Shown: piece by piece, positions 30,149 through 37,587 of the stretch | Layout of the letters: each line of letters begins with the position of its first letter | Position numbering within the stretch: the first letter of the stretch is position 1 | Assembly: GCA_947624965.1 (NCBI GenBank) | Contig: CANQMN010000005.1 | Location: forward strand, 36,442 to 100,441 | Direction of reading: 5' to 3' | Source of the DNA: an uncultured Clostridia bacterium | GTDB lineage: Bacteria > Bacillota > Clostridia > Christensenellales > Borkfalkiaceae | DNA length: 64,000 nucleotides | Notes under the pieces: generated by a model | What the model saw: only the letters and a program-made list of their open reading frames with translations | Databases searched by the model: none | What the model was told of the DNA's origin: nothing | Made by a program: the position numbers and the translations under genes

Positions 30149-30186
30149 AATTTTCCTCCCACAGAAAAGTAGATTTTTATGCTATT

Positions 30187-30215
30187 ATTTTACACGATAT
30201 GAAGGAAAATTTCAA
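30187..30215 (-). promoter_or_regulatory. candidate sigma-A promoter of the ABC ATPase gene
   Basis: The reverse strand reads TTGAAA-17 nt-TGtAAAAT. Confidence 0.4.
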
Positions 30216-30310
30216 GAGAAAATGATAACAAAGATTGACGGGCATTTTGTACAGTTTGCACAAAAAAAGAGGAAAAGCGCCTATTCCTTTTGTGCGGAAT
30301 GCGCGATATT

Positions 30311-31848
30311 CCCCCCCGCGCTCCGCGCGGGGGAGAAGAAGGAAAAGCGCGGGGGTACCAACAACTTACCTCCCCCTTGAAAGGGGGAGGGTTGGGTGGG
30401 GGTTGACGGGAAGGACGAAGGGTGGGGAGAAGAAGCCACTCCCCCTCCCCTATCGCCCGCACGTATTGTGCCGCCGAAGGGCGACACGAGGAGCGGAGCG
30501 ACGAAGTACCCCTCCCCCCCACCCTACCCTCCCCCTCACATCGTGAGGGGGAGGTAAAAACGAGGATGAGGGTAACAAGAACAACAAAGCGCAGGGGGAA
30601 AGTGAAACCACTCCCCCCCTCCTCTCCCCCGCGCGAAGCGCGGGGGAGTGCCAACAACTTACCTCCCCCTTTCAAGGGGGAGGGTTGGGTGGGGGTTGAC
30701 AGGAAGGACGAGAGGCGGGGAGAAGAAGCCACTCCCCCTACCCTATCGCCCGCACGTATTGTGCCGCCGAAGGGCGACACGAGGAGCGAAGCGACGAAGT
30801 ACCCGTCCCCCTCCCCAACCCCTCCCCCTCAATGAGGGGGAGGGTAAATAAGTAGTAATACGCGCGGGGGGAAAGAAGGAAAAGCGAGGGGGTACCAACT
30901 TACCTCCCCCTTGAAAGGGGGAGGGTTGGGTGGGGGTTGACGGGAAGGACGAAAGGTGAGGAGAAGAAACCACTCCCCCTACCCTACCCTCCCCCTCGCA
31001 AAGCGAGGGGGAGGGTAAAAGAAAGAAAAAAGGCGGGGAAATAGAGACCCCCCGCGCTCCGCGCGGGGGGTGAAGAAGGAAAAGCGCGGGGGTACCAACT
31101 TACCTCCCCCCCACTTGAAAGGGAAGGATCTGCCAACTCACCTCCCCCTTGAAAGGGGGAGGGTTGGGTGGGGGTTGAGATCTGCCGCGGCGCTCCTTTG
31201 TCTGCTCTCCCTCCCCAACCCCTGGGTGCGGCGGCAGGTACCGCCGCACCCCCCGTCGCGCTTGCCTGCGCTCCCGTCGCGGCGCGCTACTTCGTGCCGC
31301 GCTTAGTAGACAATAGTGCGCGCGGGGCACAGTCCACTGGACTGTTGAGCAGAACGCGCCGCTCCCCCCCCGCGCGAAGCGCGGGGGGGTTGACGGGAAG
31401 GACGAAAGGTGAGGAGAAGAAACCACTCCCCCTCCCCAACCCCTCCCCCTCGCAAGGCGAGGGGGAGGGTAAAAGAAAGAAAAGCGCGGGGGAGGGTAAA
31501 GAAAGAAAAGCGCGGGAAGGAAAAGACCTCCCCCGCGCGAAGCGCGGGGGTACCAACTTACCTCCCCCTTGAAAGGGGGAGGGTTGGGTGGGGGTTGACG
31601 GGAAGGACGAAAGGTGGGGAGAAGAAACCCCTCCCCCTACCCTACCCTCCCCCCTCACATCGTGAGGGGGGAGGTAAAAAAGACGAACGCGGGGGAGGGT
31701 AAAGAGGGATAGCGCGGGAAGAAAAAGAACTCCCCCGCGCGGAGCGCGGGGGAGGTTTGGTTCGTTATGGATACCGAAAGGTCGGTTGCGTATCCAATGT
31801 GGAGGGGGCTCCCCCTCCCCTACCCCTCCCCCTCAATGAGGGGGAGGG
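30311..31848. repeat. mosaic array of GC-rich palindromic units (left flank of giant lipoprotein gene)
   Basis: It contains recurrent hairpin units CCCCCGCGC-nnn-GCGCGGGGG, CCTCCCCC-TTGAAA-GGGGGAGG with a conserved tail, and CCCTCCCCCTC-loop-GAGGGGGAGGG. Details are in the findings. Confidence 0.85.
31257..31369 (+). repeat. 113-bp direct repeat, copy 1
   Basis: CGCGCTTGCCTGCGCTCCCGTCGCGGCGCGCTACTTCGTGCCGCGCTTAGTAGACAATAGTGCGCGCGGGGCACAGTCCACTGGACTGTTGAGCAGAACGCGCCGCTCCCCCC recurs at 36607-36719 with a single mismatch. Confidence 0.9.
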
Positions 31849-31884
31849 TGGGTTAAGCGTTAACGCCTAATCGGTCGAGAAGTG

Positions 31885-34800
31885 TTACTCTTGGGGCGTA
31901 AGCGTATTGCTGTAACAGAACGAGAGGTTATCGAGCCACCAGGTATTGCCAAGTTGCAATCTGAAAGTGAGCGCTTCCGTCGTAAAGTCATGCAAAACGA
32001 TCTTGTGCTCCCAAACAGATTCGTTCTGGCTGTGCAAACTGATGAGCACCGTGAACTTACTGCCGATCCTGTAAACCGTTACCTCGTAATCCCCGATAAC
32101 TTCCTCATCGCCCTCAACTTCCTCAGCAGGCTGCTGGGGTTTGGTTCCTTGGGTCGTCTCGTTGGTTTCGATTTTGTCATTAGTCAGGTCGCCCCAGATG
32201 TTACCATCGACAACATTGTAGTCGAAGTACTGATTGGCTGCATTAAAGAACTCGACAAAGCCGCAGTTGAAATACTTGCCGGCATCGCGTGTATTCGACC
32301 AAGATATTACCGCTACAAAGTCGCCCGCGGCAACTTGAACCTCGCTCGACGCGTCGCCGCCTTGTCCCCCGATAGCATTCGTATCGGCGTTATAGAAGGC
32401 ATAATTTCTCTCTGCCGTTGCGTTATACGTCGTATCGCTTTCCGTGATGGTGAGTTTCCGCGCGCCGCAGATGGAGCAGACGTTCTCCTCCCACTGGTGG
32501 TCGGCTTCCACTGCGGGAACGCTCTGCGCATTGCCGCTCCTCGTGACCGTGCCCGTGAACTGTACGCCCGCTTCGTCGCCGGCGATCCCGAGCCAATACT
32601 TATCCGCAAGTTTTTGATGCTTGTCGTATGCAGTATAGGTCATCACGTTCTGATAGTGCTTATCGCTCGCGGAGAACGTCGTGGTAACGACGATCTTCGT
32701 CGAATCCGAAAAGTCTACTACGATCTGGAAGTCGGACAAGGAGACCCCCACAAAGCTCGCTTGGAAGGTTTCACGCGAAGAAGCCACGTCGTCTATCGTC
32801 GAGTTAGACGTATAGGCGAGCATCGTATCGACGTTTACCGCACTGTTGCCCTTTGCGTTGTCGTTTACAAGAATGTTGTTGGCTTCGTAAACAGAGAATG
32901 CGATATTCACACTGTCCCCGTCATTCGGCGCCAATACGGCGACAACGGAGTCCCAAGCGTGAGTGAACTGCGTAGACCCTGCGTACGTAACCGTCTGCCC
33001 ATACCCGATGGACATGGAGAGCCATTCGGGCTGGAACCAACCCGTGCCGGTATAAGGCGTTTCGGTGTAGTTTACGCTGTTGAGGTCGTAAACCGCTTCG
33101 AGCGTGATACTGCCGCTCAGCGAAGAGAACTGCGAATCCGCCGTATAGGTCGAATTGTCGTTCGTCCCTTTCCAATAGCGGAAGGTACCCTTCGTGGACG
33201 TGGGATCCTCGTATCCTTCGACGAGGTCGGAAAGTTTGCCGTTCGACGTGCTCGTGAGCCCTGTCTGCTTCTTATACTCCGAACCGTCGTTCATGAGCGT
33301 GATGGTGAAGTCCTCCTTGAACACCGCAACAAACTCGATGTCGTCCATCTCGTCCGTCAGCGTAAGTTCGGAGATCGCCGTGGTATCGCCACTGCCGTCC
33401 GCGGAGTAGGTCGTGCCGTCATACTTCCAGCCGACGAGCGCGTGATCCGTCCACGTAGGGCCGTCCTCGGGAAGGGTGATCGCCTCGCCCGACTTCTTCG
33501 TTTGGGTCTGAACGTCCCACGAATCGCCATCGTAGTCTCCGTCCGTCGTGAAGGTTATGGTGTGCGCCTTCTCCCAAACCGCAACGAACTCGATGTTCGC
33601 AGTGATCGGGGTCTCATACTTTTCGCCGTCGTGCGTGTAGAGGCGCTCGCCCGAAACGTCGGTGGAGAGCTTCCAACCCTTGAAGGTCAGCTTGCCGTCC
33701 GTCGCCGTGGGATCTTCGGGCCACTGATCGGTGAGCGTCGTGTTCTTATCTACATAGAAGGACGTAGAGCCGTTGCCCTTCTCATCCGTGAAGGTAACTT
33801 GCGGGCGCTCTTCCCAAACCGCCGTGAAGGTGGTATCGGCAGTGATCGTCCCGGCGTAGGGGCTCGCCTTGGTGTACTTGGTATCGTCCCCGCCGTTCTT
33901 CGTCCAGCCGAGGAACTTGAAGCCCTCGGGCGCCGTGGGATCGTTGGGCCACTGATCGCCGATCGTCGCGTTTTGGTCTACATAGAAGGACGTAGAACCG
34001 ATGTTCTTGTCATCCGTGAAGGTGATATGCCACTGCCGTTCCCACTGCGCGTTGAACGTCGTCGCGTCAATGATCGCTTCGGAATAGGGGTTCGACTTGG
34101 TGTACTTTTCGCCGTCGTTGCCGTCCTTCGTCCAACCGAGGAACTTCCAGCCCGTTACGACGGGATCTTCGGGCCAAGAGCCCGCGGGGATCGTTTCGCC
34201 CTTTACGACGGAGAGCGTCTTGCCGCTTCCGCCCTTGTTATCCGTAAAGGTAACTTCCCACACTTGGTCTGCGCTCGGCTGGGTGTAAACCGCATACGTC
34301 GCGGGTTCGCCGCCGTAGATGCCGATGCTCTCATCGAGGTAGTGCAGGAACCAATATTCGAGATCTTCGTCTCCCGAAGCAAAGCCGACGTAGCCGTAAC
34401 CGCCGAGCCACATGATCGCGCCCGTCTTGGCGCCCATCGACAGGCTGCCCTCTTCGATGATAACGGTCTCGTGCTCCGCCGCCATCCACGTGCCTTCCAC
34501 GTCCGAGGGTGCGAGACCGATCGGGTTCTTCGTTGCATTCGCAGAGCCGATGACGATGTGGTCCGTATCATACGTGAAGGAAAGGAGGCCGCTGTACTCG
34601 GTGGTATACGTGCCGTCTGCATAGTTGACCGCTACGAGACGCGCGGACTGGGTATCGCCCGCCGTCCAGATGAGCGCATTCGCAACGTGCGTGCCCTCTA
34701 CATCCGCGGGAACGGTGATGAGAATGGTGTCGTTCCCGTTCGCATACTGCCCTTCGATCTCCAATTCCCAAACTGCGGCATACTCGTATGTCTCGCCGCC

Positions 34801-36183
34801 TTCGAGTTCCGTGATCGTCTCGCCGGGAGCTTTAATTGTCATCGAGCCGACGCCGTGGCCGCCCCCTTCATTGACGCCCCAACCCTTGAAGGCGTAGCAA
34901 CCGAGCGACGCCGTAAATCCGAGCGCAGAAGGCTGGGGAAGGGTGAGCGAGAAGGTATCCGAAGTTTCCGTAAGGCAAGCGCGCACCTTGTTGTTTGCCT
35001 TGCCGATCGAGCCGCCCTCACCGCTGCCCGCGTTGAACACAACTTCGGGACGGATGGCGACTTTTTCGCCGTAGAGCGTGATATCTGCCGTCGGAACGTA
35101 GGTATAGTCCACAAGGGTGGTCGCATCGTGCGTCGTCTCGTCCGTATACCAATACATTTCCTGCGTCCAAACATCGTTTTCGAGCGCTTCGTCATCGACG
35201 TCGCTGAACGCCCACTCGTCGCCGATGGGCTCGCCCTTCGCGACTTCGATCGTCGCGGTGAGCGGCGCCCCCTCCACAGAGAAGGAGACCGTCCACTTGT
35301 CCTCGGCGAGAATATCGCCGTTCTCGTACATCGTGCAGCTGTCGCCGCCCAGAACGTTGACGCCGCCCGTCGTCTTTTCCACGATGTAGTAGTCGTCGTC
35401 GGCGCACGTAAGGACCGCCCACTTGCCGAGATAAATTACGGTGTAGCCGTCGCCGTCAAGGGTCGCCATGCCGCCCGTCTTGATTTCGAGACGGGACGTC
35501 TCATGATGATAGACGCCGACAAATTCGGGCGTTGCGGGAAGCGCGGCATGCTCGGTGAGTTGGAGCGTATCCATATCGCCGTACTTAAACGTGAGCGTTC
35601 CTTCCGCATAGGAGAGGATCGCATCCTCGGCGGGAAGCGCATTCCCCTGGATGCTTTTCAGCGTATACGCGCCGTCCTCTTCGTCAACTTGGAGAAGTAT
35701 CGTAAAACAGTGCGAGCTCGACGAATCGTCGCGGGCAACCATCACGAGGTCGTAATCGTAGCCTGCCAACGTGCCCGCGGCTTGAATGCCGATCTCCATG
35801 GTCATCGTAACGCCGGGCCCCTCCGAATCCGTGATGGTCCAGAGACCCGGGATGCCGTCGGGAACGTTTTCCTGCCACTGCGCGGTGAACGTTACGTTCT
35901 TCTTGGGCATCGTATATTCCGCCTTGGCGGCGTACGTCTTCGTGCCGTCGCTCCAACCCGTGAACGTATGATTCTCATACGAATAGGTGCTTTCCGCAAG
36001 CTGGAACTTTTCCCCCTCTGCGTGCGTTTCGCTTTCAGGCGTCGTTCCCGTTACCGCCGTGTTGCCCGGCGCGTACGTTACGGTGTACTTGTCCCCCTCC
36101 GTCTCCGTACACGCGGCAATGCCGCACGCCAGAAGCGATACGAGAAGAACGGAGCCGAACACTTTGCACAAAAGTTTCTTCAT
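31885..36183 (-). CDS. 1432-aa surface lipoprotein with InlB B-repeat (Listeria-Bacteroides repeat) domains
   Basis: It has signal peptide plus lipobox MKKLLCKVFGSVLLVSLLACGIAAC. There are at least 6 repeats ending in F.GW...(A/T)(V/Q)W (e.g. FLGWTKDG...FNAQW, FKGWKL...FVAVW). The C-terminus has beta-sandwich-like domains. An AGGAGG RBS is present. Confidence 0.8.
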   Translation of the reverse strand: MKKLLCKVFGSVLLVSLLACGIAACTETEGDKYTVTYAPGNTAVTGTTPESETHAEGEKFQLAESTYSYENHTFTGWSDGTKTYAAKAEYTMPKKNVTFTAQWQENVPDGIPGLWTITDSEGPGVTMTMEIGIQAAGTLAGYDYDLVMVARDDSSSSHCFTILLQVDEEDGAYTLKSIQGNALPAEDAILSYAEGTLTFKYGDMDTLQLTEHAALPATPEFVGVYHHETSRLEIKTGGMATLDGDGYTVIYLGKWAVLTCADDDYYIVEKTTGGVNVLGGDSCTMYENGDILAEDKWTVSFSVEGAPLTATIEVAKGEPIGDEWAFSDVDDEALENDVWTQEMYWYTDETTHDATTLVDYTYVPTADITLYGEKVAIRPEVVFNAGSGEGGSIGKANNKVRACLTETSDTFSLTLPQPSALGFTASLGCYAFKGWGVNEGGGHGVGSMTIKAPGETITELEGGETYEYAAVWELEIEGQYANGNDTILITVPADVEGTHVANALIWTAGDTQSARLVAVNYADGTYTTEYSGLLSFTYDTDHIVIGSANATKNPIGLAPSDVEGTWMAAEHETVIIEEGSLSMGAKTGAIMWLGGYGYVGFASGDEDLEYWFLHYLDESIGIYGGEPATYAVYTQPSADQVWEVTFTDNKGGSGKTLSVVKGETIPAGSWPEDPVVTGWKFLGWTKDGNDGEKYTKSNPYSEAIIDATTFNAQWERQWHITFTDDKNIGSTSFYVDQNATIGDQWPNDPTAPEGFKFLGWTKNGGDDTKYTKASPYAGTITADTTFTAVWEERPQVTFTDEKGNGSTSFYVDKNTTLTDQWPEDPTATDGKLTFKGWKLSTDVSGERLYTHDGEKYETPITANIEFVAVWEKAHTITFTTDGDYDGDSWDVQTQTKKSGEAITLPEDGPTWTDHALVGWKYDGTTYSADGSGDTTAISELTLTDEMDDIEFVAVFKEDFTITLMNDGSEYKKQTGLTSTSNGKLSDLVEGYEDPTSTKGTFRYWKGTNDNSTYTADSQFSSLSGSITLEAVYDLNSVNYTETPYTGTGWFQPEWLSMSIGYGQTVTYAGSTQFTHAWDSVVAVLAPNDGDSVNIAFSVYEANNILVNDNAKGNSAVNVDTMLAYTSNSTIDDVASSRETFQASFVGVSLSDFQIVVDFSDSTKIVVTTTFSASDKHYQNVMTYTAYDKHQKLADKYWLGIAGDEAGVQFTGTVTRSGNAQSVPAVEADHQWEENVCSICGARKLTITESDTTYNATAERNYAFYNADTNAIGGQGGDASSEVQVAAGDFVAVISWSNTRDAGKYFNCGFVEFFNAANQYFDYNVVDGNIWGDLTNDKIETNETTQGTKPQQPAEEVEGDEEVIGDYEVTVYRIGSKFTVLISLHSQNESVWEHKIVLHDFTTEALTFRLQLGNTWWLDNLSFCYSNTLTPQE

Positions 36184-36325
36184 TCTGGTCCTCCTGATAT
36201 TATTTTTGCTCTATGTCCAACGGTTATGCATCTCTCCCGAGAACCCCCATTGCCGGGAGAAAAGCATCGCCACCTGTGCCGATTTCCTCGGTTTTTTTGA
36301 CAATAAAAACCAATTATGTGGGTAT

Positions 36326-36355
36326 AGTATACCATTACCCCCCCCCGAATGTCAA
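36326..36355 (-). promoter_or_regulatory. promoter of the giant lipoprotein gene with a G9 tract in the spacer
   Basis: The reverse strand reads TTGACA ttcGGGGGGGGGtaatgg TATACT. The spacer is 18 nt with a TGg extended -10. The C9 run lies at 36338-36346 on +. Confidence 0.55.
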
Positions 36356-36390
36356 CCGTTTTGTGAAAATTTATTTTTTATTATAAGGTC

Positions 36391-37477
36391 TGCGCGCCCG
36401 CGCGTGAGAAACCACGCCCTTCGGCGCACTTTTCCACCCCCACCCCTTATGAGGGGGAAAGAGAGTGTTCTCCCCACGTTGAGGGGGGGAACGAAGCCAC
36501 TCCCCCCACCCTACCCCTCGGGTGCGGCGGCAGGTACCGCCGCACCCCCCGTACTTCGGCGCAATGCGCCTCGTGCCGCGCTTAGTAGACAATCGTGCGC
36601 GCGGGGCGCGCTTGCCTGCGCTCCCGTCGCGGCGCGCTACTTCGTGCCGCGCTTAGTAGGCAATAGTGCGCGCGGGGCACAGTCCACTGGACTGTTGAGC
36701 AGAACGCGCCGCTCCCCCCTCGCTTGCGAGGGGGGAGGTAAAGAGAACCGACGAGAGGGATATATAGCTACCTTCCCCCTCGCTTGCGAGGGGGAAGGTA
36801 AAAAGGAAAACGCGGGGAGAGAATATATCCACCTCCCCCCTTCCAAGAGGGAGCAAAATCTATCTACCTCCCCCTTCCAAGGGGAAACAAAATATATCCA
36901 CCTCCCCCTTTCCAAGGGGGAGGGTTGGGTGGGGGTTGATTTCCTCACTCGCCTTTCCCCTCTCCTTTCCTCCCCCTCATTGAAAGGAGAGAAAAATAGA
37001 GTGTTCTCCCCTCAACGAGGAGAGAACGAAGCCACTCCCCCTACCCTGCCCTTCCCCCTCGCAACGCGAGGGGGAAGGTAAAGAGAACCGACGCGGGGAA
37101 ACAAAATCTATCTACCTCCCCCTTCCAAGGGGAAACAAAATATATCCACCTCCCCCTTCCCAAGGGGAAACAAAATATATCCACCTCCCCCTTTCCAAGG
37201 GGGAGGGTTGGGTGGGGGTTGATTTCCTCACTCGCCTTTCCCCTCTCCTTCCCCCCCTCATTGAAAGGAGAAAAAATAGAGTGGTCTCCCCTCGTTGAGG
37301 GGAGACCGAAACCACTCCCCCTACCCTACCCTCGGGTGCGGCGGCAGGTACCGCCGCACCCCCCGTACTTCGGCGCAATGCGCCTCGTGCCGCGCTTGGT
37401 CAATAATAGTGCGCGCGGGGCGCGCTTGCCTGCGCTCCCCCTACCCTGCCCTCCCCCCTCGTGAACGAGGGGGGAGG
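36391..37477. repeat. mosaic array of GC-rich palindromic units (right flank / upstream of giant lipoprotein gene)
   Basis: It uses the same unit families as the left array. It also has about 34-bp mini-units (caaaatatatccaCCTCCCCCttccaaGGGGG) and a duplicated compound unit (36854-37046 and 37102-37329). Confidence 0.85.
36607..36719 (+). repeat. 113-bp direct repeat, copy 2
   Basis: It matches 31257-31369 with one A/G mismatch. Confidence 0.9.
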
Positions 37478-37539
37478 TAAGAGGGAACCGACGCGGGAGG
37501 AGGGAAAAACGGCGTGGGAGGAGAGAGCGGCATAAAAAA

Positions 37540-37567
37540 TCCGCGCGGACAGATCTGTCCGCGCGGA
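37540..37567 (-). terminator. rho-independent terminator of clpX
   Basis: The palindrome is TCCGCGCGGACAGATCTGTCCGCGCGGA, followed on the reverse strand by ATTTTTTATG. Confidence 0.7.
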
Positions 37568-37587
37568 ACGGTTTCCCTATTCTTCCG

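Follow-up and report, generated by a model that had tools for sequence, protein, structure and literature searches.

A G-rich 20-mer of a Clostridia genome as a probable part of a triplex-type repeat unit, and its association with a DUF559 nuclease gene

The locus and the anatomy of the repeat unit

The window analysed here is a stretch of 64,000 nucleotides from an uncultured Clostridia bacterium of the family Borkfalkiaceae (GenBank assembly GCA_947624965.1, contig CANQMN010000005.1, here contig C5, positions 36,442 to 100,441 of the forward strand), whose metagenome-assembled genome comprises 1.79 Mb in 34 contigs with 58.5% G+C and is 98.7% complete. The genes from 27.6 to 40.8 kb of the window are on the - strand and, according to Pfam, are tig, clpP, clpX, a gene for a 1432-aa lipoprotein or surface protein with the Listeria-Bacteroides repeat (31885..36183) and a gene for a MalK-like ABC ATPase. 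The surface-protein gene stands between two arrays of repeats: a right-hand array of 1.7 kb without a credible open reading frame (ORF), which extends from the stop of the lipoprotein gene to the start of the ABC ATPase gene (30149..31884), and a left-hand array of 1.4 kb from the clpX stop to the start of the lipoprotein gene (36184..37587). In these arrays an earlier note had pointed to seven + strand copies of a G-rich 20-mer, GGGGGAGGGTTGGGTGGGGG, and had taken the motif for a G-quadruplex (G4) former whose folding would exclude that of an overlapping hairpin. Our analysis leads to another account, namely that the 20-mer is probably part of a class II intrastrand-triplex repeat unit, which occurs in doublets, forms the ends of a cassette with a DUF559 nuclease gene, and makes up two local arrays around an inserted surface-protein gene.

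All seven copies were confirmed with zero mismatch, at 30383, 30676, 30917, 31155, 31575, 36916 and 37199, and since the genes there are on the - strand, the copies do lie on the template strand, as the earlier note had stated. None of 100 dinucleotide-preserving shuffles gave a match to the 20-mer, for which the chance expectation is 0. The overlap with a hairpin is equally real: each window copy has CCTCCCCC(T)(T), a loop of 3-4 nt and (A)(A)GGGGGAGG, which make up a hairpin of 9-10 bp whose 3' arm is the start of the 20-mer, and the first two G-runs of the 20-mer sit in this arm. The 20-mer as such consists of a purine arm GGGGGAGGG, a TT linker and a third-strand tail GGGTGGGGG, which mirrors the purine arm with T opposite A. 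The full unit is CCTCCCCC-loop-GGGGGAGGG-TT-GGGTGGGGG(TT), and the 40-mer carrying it is TACCTCCCCCTTGAAAGGGGGAGGGTTGGGTGGGGGTTGA.

In a class II purine-motif intrastrand triplex the third strand is antiparallel to the purine arm, and the triplets are G.G-C and T.A-T (or A.A-T). Read in this way, GGGGGAGGG-TT-GGGTGGGGG gives 9 triplets. In fact the unit has all the parts of a class II motif, that is a homopyrimidine arm, a loop of 3-6 nt, a homopurine arm of at least 8 nt and a mirrored third segment after a linker of 1-6 nt, and it is intergenic and multi-copy with loops less conserved than stems, as belongs to the triplex class. Behind the 20-mer TTGA is conserved, and TT follows in 32 of the 36 copies of the genome; this trailing TT is better explained as mirroring the loop-proximal AA. 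As a promoter or a terminator TTGA(C) was rejected, since a -10 box at a suitable distance and a U-tail are both lacking.

Of the seven + strand units, the first (30369..30406, 20-mer 30383-30402) has the pyrimidine arm CCTCCCCCT at 30369-30377, the loop TGAA, the purine arm AGGGGGAGG at 30382-30390, a G-TT linker, the tail GGGTGGGGG and TTGA, and the second (30662..30699, 20-mer 30676-30695) has the same anatomy with the loop TTCA. The third (30903..30940, 20-mer 30917-30936) makes a doublet together with the inverted unit at 30975-31017, in which 38 nt separate the G tail from the C tail, and the fifth (31561..31598, 20-mer 31575-31594) with the inverted unit at 31633-31674. The fourth (31141..31178, 20-mer 31155-31174) has on its flanks an 8-bp direct repeat, GATCTGCC, which was not seen at other copies. 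As a target-site duplication this repeat (31127-31186) was rejected, since a second abutting 8-mer case was not found and the right-hand copy of the repeat is part of a module that also stands behind further copies. The sixth unit (36901..36939, 20-mer 36916-36935) has the pyrimidine arm CCTCCCCCTT, the loop TCC and the purine arm AAGGGGGAGG and is preceded by 34-bp tandem mini-hairpins, while the seventh (37184..37222, 20-mer 37199-37218) is a duplicate of the sixth.

That all copies lie on the + strand, as the earlier note had it, holds for the exact variant but not for the family, since seven sister units (for example GGGGGAGGGTAGGGTGGGGG and GGGGGAGGGGTAGGGGAGGGGG) are found on the - strand in the same two arrays. 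The one at 30514..30554, with the C tail CCCCCCCACCCTACCCTCCCCC and the hairpin CCTCCCCCTCAC/GTGAGGGGGAGG, is the partner of the first two + strand units. The sister at 30807..30844 is of the class GGGGGAGGGG-TT-GGGGAGGGGG, an exact mirror of the A.A-T type; that at 30975..31017 has a 15-bp hairpin and is the partner of the third unit; another is at 31428..31469; that at 31633..31674 is the partner of the fifth. The sister at 31811..31848 belongs to the class GGGGGAGGGG-TA-GGGGAGGGGG, a type found also upstream of the DUF559 gene on contig C19, and that at 37437..37477 is a variant with the linker CA. The restriction to the + strand reflects the polarity of inverted doublets, not a one-strand G4 signal.

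Over the whole genome, the exact 20-mer has 36 copies on 12 contigs with unique flanks, none of which is inside a called gene (genes were called by a simple in-house codon-usage caller, covering 77% of the genome). A one-base variant with a TA linker in place of TT has 45 copies on either strand and a further variant, GGGGGAGGGTAGGGTAGGGG, has 10, while structure-breaking variants are rare, with 1-2 copies each. A genome scan anchored on the hairpin gave about 215 hairpins with a pyrimidine and a purine arm, about 140 of them with a G-rich 3' tail, and the intergenic regions bearing units amount to about 2.9% of the genome. The 36 exact copies show 16 loop forms and retain the arm ACCTCCCCC in at least 29; the C-rich arm is perfect in about 33 of them, and the 20-mer is never found without it. 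Read backwards, the 20-mer has 0 copies in the whole genome; the order is always that of class II (arm, arm, tail) and never that of class I, with the tail first.

The contrast between a perfectly conserved 20-mer and its drifting surroundings, which the earlier note had stressed, is real, but it is due in part to recent duplication of composite units, as the window copies share flanks. When copies were chosen by their 44-nt spacer (blastn-short; spacers 86-100% identical), the 20-mer was exact in 6 of 8. As to the genome-wide distribution, which the earlier note had suggested looking at, the 20-mer is dispersed and not local, yet a strand bias and a position bias are present, as described below.

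Mirror symmetry of arm and tail across genomes

Among the relatives searched the exact 20-mer variant is specific to this species, with 0 copies in 24 congeners and in 16 other families of the order. The underlying hairpin is present in 21 of 60 congeners, with copy numbers from 0 to 90; the family is patchy and expands within lineages. Beyond the order, the exact 20-mer occurs in at least 120 loci of GTDB genomes from about ten phyla. Among the matches listed the hosts are Alpha-, Beta- and Gammaproteobacteria, Bacteroidota, Chloroflexota, Planctomycetota, Verrucomicrobiota, Armatimonadota, Desulfobacterota, Nitrospirota and Binatia, and in nearly every case AGCCCTCCCCC and a loop stand ahead of the other-phylum 20-mer. 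The 20-mer is also carried, in the same hairpin context, by 15 IMG/VR contigs. One IMG/VR contig of 9 kb that is classed as viral (L171) has three exact 20-mer units.

For the mirror test the units were anchored on their hairpins alone and the 3' flank was then inspected. The other-phylum units come from loci selected for the exact 20-mer, and the exact 20-mer itself is excluded from the count of 86 distinct units; of these, 77 have a perfect mirrored run of at least 8 including an A. With the tails permuted among units the count has a mean of 29.3 and a maximum of 39 (200 permutations), and with the tail core reversed it is 4. Opposite the A of the arm, the tail base in other phyla is T in 149 cases, A in 41, C in 3 and G in 0, that is T or A in 190 of 193, and the neighbouring linkers often hold C, for example TCG, CCG, CTG or CA.

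Moreover, the run lengths of arm and tail covary, as in G5AG3/G3TG5, G5AG4/G4AG5, G6AG3/G3TG6, G5AAG2/G2-3ATG5 and G2AG6/G6TG2. In this genome the arm G5AG3 goes with the tail G3TG5, GAG5AG4 with G4AG5AG and GAG6AG3 with G3TG6AG, while in other phyla there are, besides the G5AAG2/G2-3ATG5 type, G4AG4/G4TG4, G4AGAG3/G3TGAG4, G6AG2/G2AG6 and G2AAG6A/AG6ATG2.

The potential to form a G4 is not conserved across family members in the same way. Among the 77 other-phylum units that obey the mirror rule, 20 are not canonical G4 motifs, and no more than 5 of 62 G4-capable units break the mirror rule. For example, at the same site downstream of clpX two congeners have CCCCCTCC-GTG-GGAGGGGGG-TA-GGGGGGTGG (G2AG6-TA-G6TG2), where the mirror is kept without four G3 runs. 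In this genome itself 126 of 132 units are G4-capable. To judge by these sequences, the conserved feature is probably the triplex geometry, in which hairpin and tail would cooperate rather than exclude each other. The mutually exclusive switch between hairpin and G4, which the earlier note had offered as the reason for conservation, leaves the mirror tail, the covariation, the T/A rule and the non-G4 units unexplained.

Doublets, their polarity and the DUF559 gene

Most of the exact copies (27 of 36) are followed by an inverted sister unit, C tail first, after a spacer of mostly 18-51 nt or 89-111 nt. Such a doublet mostly consists of a TA-linker unit and a TT-linker unit (the 20-mer) which face each other with their tails inward, and its Watson-Crick fold has two local hairpins with the tails paired together (z = -5.9 as DNA and -6.2 as RNA). 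A search of Rfam gave nothing at gathering score; only sub-threshold microRNA-precursor look-alikes were seen, that is generic long hairpins, because the doublets fold as two hairpins with paired tails.

The units are found in 46 intergenic regions, of which 29 are tandem, 17 convergent and 0 divergent; convergent regions are over-represented (p = 6e-6) and divergent ones under-represented (p = 0.008). The family as a whole has no strand bias, since the units come as inverted pairs. Nevertheless the exact TT-linker 20-mer prefers the locally C>G strand, on which it lies in 30 of 36 copies and in 21 of 22 regions (binomial p ~1e-5), and the TA-linker classes are mostly on the opposite strand. 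This skew-linked orientation holds in 8 of 8 convergent regions and in the sole tandem region in which the skew and the direction of the genes are at odds. We infer from GC skew and gene-strand bias that the doublet has a fixed polarity relative to the replication strand. An orientation tied to the replication strand is expected of mechanisms acting on single-strand DNA.

A single DUF559 gene is present in the genome (C19:1772-2116, - strand, Pfam E = 6e-32), and no DUF559 fragments were found elsewhere in it. The 115-aa protein matches PDB 3hrl (E = 2e-17), and its catalytic D, E-x-D and Q-H columns are intact and are invariant in 22 homologues including YcjD. On the strand of the gene, a TA-type unit, CCCTCCCCCTCGC-tgtg-GCGAGGGGGAGGGG-TA-GGGGAGGGGGAG, lies 72 nt upstream, while about 5 nt past the stop (19 nt past the domain) there is CCCCCACCCAACCCTCCCCC-tttcaa-GGGGGAGG, that is the exact 20-mer unit in inverted orientation. 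The gene is thus bracketed as a cassette whose ends are inverted units with their tails toward the gene, and in the doublet survey this cassette appears as a 'spacer' of 402 nt. The gene-less doublets share its subtype order and its polarity relative to the leading strand, and they look like gene-less derivatives of the DUF559 cassette. Behind the upstream unit, inside the cassette, there is TTGCCA-17 nt-TATAAT, which suggests that the DUF559 transcript is leaderless and driven from inside the cassette. The distance from the -10 box to the ATG of the gene (MKKRNHN...) is 6 nt. Neither a Y1/RAYT transposase (PF01797) nor TnpB (PF07282) gave a match in the 98.7% complete genome.

The association recurs in relatives. 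Of 29 DUF559 loci in the genus, 27 have hairpins with a pyrimidine and a purine arm at most 250 bp away and 16 have them on both sides, while of 22 clpX control loci 3 have such hairpins and 0 have them on both sides (Fisher p = 5.5e-9, the related genomes being non-independent). This looser hairpin criterion with its clpX control was used instead of a strict unit finder, which found units at 5 of the 29 loci because the arms of many relatives have C or G interruptions or nested hairpins. DUF559 is found in 15 of 16 congeners with at least 7 hairpin copies, and in 13 of the 44 others.

In other phyla, 135 loci were fetched solely for holding the 20-mer; 9 of them encode DUF559, and 8 of 10 domain matches lie 12-44 bp from the 20-mer. 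The DUF559 loci with the identical 20-mer include Bacillota, Pseudomonadota and Bacteroidota, and at L020, L054, L109 and the second gene of L030 an inverted unit stands at the other end of the DUF559 gene. Also at L030 (3420-3560; an Allosphingosinicella metagenome-assembled genome), a DUF559 gene is separated from its own matched inverted end, GGGGAGAGGG, which is of another arm type, by a nested exact 20-mer unit, so units would insert into or beside other cassettes.

In Escherichia coli K-12, a BoxC repeat lies 165 bp downstream of the DUF559 gene ycjD, together with a second copy of part of the gene's 3' end. In NC_000913.3 the two are found at ~1351190-1351465, 3' of ycjD, as BoxC CCCCTCACCCTAACCCTCTCCCC-aga-GGGGCGAGGGG and a duplicate of ~45 bp. 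These look like what a second cassette or a rearrangement would leave behind. In the literature searched on DUF559 there is no link to BoxC, and a DUF559-flanked triplex-repeat cassette is absent from it.

Interpretation, related repeats and the clpX-malK site

BoxC repeats are the same as the PIT elements (Hoyne and Maher 2000) and as TMECO (Holder et al. 2015, PMC4666352), and share much with the present unit. In both there is a C-rich arm, a loop, a G-rich arm, a short linker and a G/T/A segment mirroring the purine arm; both are intergenic and multi-copy with stable arms and variable loops, and for neither is a transposase known. In TMECO too the loops are less conserved than the stems, and 5 of 23 K-12 copies stand in inverted pairs, each of two linker subtypes (PMC4666352), which are TTA and CCG in E. 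coli and TT and TA here. A DUF559 gene adjoins a unit in both, as ycjD stands beside BoxC in K-12.

However, there are differences. The TMECO consensus CCCTCNCCC N3-6 GGGNGAGGG N3 GGGNGAGGG gives 0 regex matches in this genome; the unit here has one A per arm, a second loop of 2 nt and G-run loops of 1-2 nt, features that raise its tendency to form a G4; its orientation is biased with the skew and it occurs in 0 divergent regions, whereas E. coli copies show no strand bias and are more often upstream of ORFs; and here the host belongs to the Clostridia and the arrays are kb-sized. Judged by its sequence, the 20-mer unit appears to be a different sequence variant of the TMECO structural class. 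For TMECO oligonucleotides, nuclear magnetic resonance (NMR) showed the fold to be a triplex, not a G4, and melting occurred at 70-82 degrees C (PMC4666352). For the same E. coli motifs a G4-hairpin-duplex switch has also been proposed (Kaplan et al. 2016, PMC5100583), so the hairpin/G4 switch of the earlier note is an idea already published for the E. coli members. The motifs of that study, HPG1 and HPG2, resemble the present units in forming close pairs on opposite strands, while the switch model ignores the mirror rule, and our data favour the triplex rule as the conserved feature.

Other repeats share single aspects. Like the REP/BIME sequences with REPIN-RAYT, the units are dispersed intergenic palindromes in inverted doublets or mosaics downstream of genes, and on either side of a single-copy nuclease-type gene stands the very repeat that this gene would mobilise; unlike there, no Y1 (RAYT) transposase is present, the candidate partner being a Vsr-like PD-(D/E)XK protein, and REPs lack the mirror-repeat third strand. 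With IS200/IS605 and PATEs they have in common the hairpin-bearing ends, the replication-strand orientation and the short gene-less derivatives, but TnpA and TnpB are absent here and the structure of the ends differs. Miniature inverted-repeat transposable elements such as Correia/NEMIS and RUP are likewise short non-autonomous inverted repeats with many copies, patchy among related species (0 to 90 copies in congeners here), but the present units show neither target-site duplication nor a DDE transposase partner, and their ends are of the triplex type.

Taking these results together, we propose that single-stranded G-rich DNA would fold as a hairpin plus third strand, with a G4 competing in K+. 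The folding would take place when the strand is unwound, for example at the replication fork, and the element would act at the DNA level. The DUF559 nuclease may recognise the ends and mobilise or copy the units, or may home into the doublets, the adjacency being correlative. Moreover, the folded structures may promote slippage, recombination and local duplication and so give rise to arrays; the seven window copies would belong to two locally duplicated doublet arrays bracketing the surface-protein gene, which would have been inserted between clpX and the malK-like gene. Nothing in the data shows a regulatory switch.

A more tentative extension of the triplex reading, possible but well short of established, is that BoxC-type repeats are the ends of an undescribed class of mobile elements. 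The autonomous form would be a cassette of about 0.5 kb encoding only a DUF559 nuclease, which would recognise the fold at the replication fork and spread both the cassette and the gene-less doublets; such recognition of a single-stranded fold would account for the replication-strand polarity. If this is true, the identical 20-mer at DUF559 genes across phyla would reflect a structurally constrained recognition site or horizontal spread, and the arrays would serve as substrates for recombination, by which surface-protein genes enter and leave loci such as clpX-malK.

Several points weigh against these readings. In E. coli, in vivo dimethyl sulfate footprinting gave no sign of a stable triplex, and the PIT elements showed no promoter or terminator activity (PMC4666352). 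Within this genome the permutation test for the mirror rule is weak (observed 110; permutations with a mean of 104 and at most 108), since there are only a few variants and these are related. The G4 term of ViennaRNA, a program without a triplex term, favours the predicted G4 over the hairpin for the free strand, and competition from the G4 would be greater here than in TMECO because the G-run loops are just 1-2 nt. As for the mobile element, there is one DUF559 gene for about 140 units; 13 congeners have DUF559 without this particular hairpin sequence, and the congener counts come from related genomes, which are non-independent samples; some other-phylum loci have the 20-mer beside a DUF559 gene in a non-inverted geometry; and no target-site duplications were found beyond chance (longest shared flank words 5.69 against 5.34 in re-paired flanks).

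It is rather doubtful that the repeat is the target of DUF559 and not its ends, such that a homing-type selfish gene inserts into doublet spacers and the doublets spread by another route. This would agree with the position of the gene in what is otherwise a doublet spacer (402 nt against 18-51 nt), with one gene per about 40 doublets, with gene-less spacers unrelated to the interior of the cassette, with the unit nested inside another cassette at L030, and with the assignment of DUF559 to the Vsr clade, to which a group I intron homing endonuclease also belongs (PDB 3r3p; PMC3424549). Efficient homing, however, is hard to reconcile with a single copy amid many empty doublets, and cassette ends in different phyla match in type (L020, L030, L054), as would be the case for the element's own ends.

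A switch in which the unwound + strand folds either as a hairpin (or duplex) or as a three-tetrad G4 and so regulates the transcription or replication of its neighbours seems improbable, though the motif itself was rightly recognised by the earlier note as G4-type. Its runs, G5-A-G3-TT-G3-T-G5, comprise four of at least G3 with loops of 1-2 nt; the sequence is canonical and scores 2.9 in G4Hunter, most units of this genome are likewise G4-capable, and ViennaRNA gives -27.7 kcal/mol for the three-tetrad G4 against -10.5 (DNA) or -19.3 (RNA) for the hairpin. Moreover a 17-mer substring, GGGAGGGTTGGGTGGGG, has served, annealed in K+, as a G4 substrate (PMC12325982), and circular dichroism data on the E. 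coli motifs were interpreted as hairpin plus G4 (PMC5100583). A G4 is accordingly a plausible competing fold of the free strand, but one that accounts less well for the variation: the switch predicts neither mirror symmetry nor arm-tail covariation nor T or A opposite the arm A, and leaves aside the mirror units of other phyla and of the congeners' clpX site that are not canonical G4 motifs. Nor would it require the constant C-rich arm or the avoidance of divergent, that is promoter, regions (0 of 46); sister units place equivalent G tracts on the other strand of the same arrays, and NMR excluded a G4 in TMECO (PMC4666352).

Little likelihood attaches also to an RNA-level element, that is REP/BIME-like 3'-end hairpins which stabilise the upstream mRNA or attenuate read-through. 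The units do occur only in tandem or convergent regions, hence downstream of genes, both strands fold strongly as RNA or DNA (z ~ -6), and the orientation relative to the flanking genes is mostly fixed (53 opposite, 15 same). Against this, the structure that agrees with the mirror rule, a purine-motif triplex, reportedly does not form in RNA (PMC4666352); a U-tail is missing from the hairpins; PIT elements had no terminator activity in E. coli (PMC4666352); the 8 convergent regions and the one discordant tandem region follow GC skew and not gene direction; and the association with a DNA nuclease gene points to a role at the DNA level. Chance low-complexity sequence or an assembly artefact without constraint, which a G-rich and simple sequence from a metagenome-assembled genome might suggest, can be dismissed as refuted by the shuffle expectation of 0, by the unique flanks of 36 copies on 12 contigs, by the 0 copies of the reversed 20-mer and by the same architecture in isolate genomes of many phyla.

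BoxC/PIT/triplex-motif repeats, which were already known in the early 1990s and occur in hundreds of genomes, are still unexplained in their function and means of spread. What is new here is, first, that covariation across many phyla, in units anchored on their hairpins, indicates that evolution has kept the mirror (triplex) rule rather than G4 potential; second, that in one genome the units show a clear polarity with respect to the replication strand and keep away from promoter regions, which points to a strand-specific process at the DNA level; and third, a repeatable physical link between the same 20-mer and a small DUF559 nuclease gene, which provides a named candidate for the spread of the repeat, including ycjD in E. 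coli K-12. In annotation some caution is advisable, since G4 predictors will flag triplex-type units wholesale.

In the window itself, the clpX-malK site is an insertion or rearrangement hot spot. The order from clpX to the malK-like gene is kept in at least 7 congeners with a variable sequence of 198-1276 bp between the two genes, which is occupied by small lipoprotein ORFs, by a few triplex-type units or by no more than a terminator, while here the two genes are 7.4 kb apart, with 1.4 kb of array, 4.3 kb of surface-protein gene and another 1.7 kb of array between them. This reading of the arrays agrees with the genomic instability reported for TMECO loci, which are unusually rearranged between strains (PMC4666352).

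The surface-protein gene contains a tandem duplication of 228 bp in 2 copies that are 76% identical (33703-34153). Over its 4.3 kb both strands are open (31882-36300 on the + strand, 31885-36183 on the - strand); the + strand ORF of 1472 aa is a shadow, since only the - strand frame has a Pfam match and coding-like codon usage. For the arrays a coding reading was ruled out by the loop-length variation of 1-3 nt and by the lack of an ORF spanning them. In the left-hand array, tandem mini-repeats of 34-35 bp, GGGGAAACAAAATATATCCACCTCCCCCTTCCAA, stand in two runs of about 3 copies each (36814-36922 and 37095-37202); they are truncated hairpins without a tail, and just the final copy of each run extends into a full 20-mer unit. 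The right-hand array has a second hairpin family, CCCCCGCGC-GNNG-GCGCGGGGG, without a mirror tail, at 30311-30335, 30628-30648, 31049-31069, 31369-31391, 31530-31550 and 31733-31752. Its members stand regularly about 25 nt ahead of a 20-mer unit, and at 31369-31391 such a hairpin takes the place of the 20-mer unit, directly before the TTGACGGGAAGG spacer.

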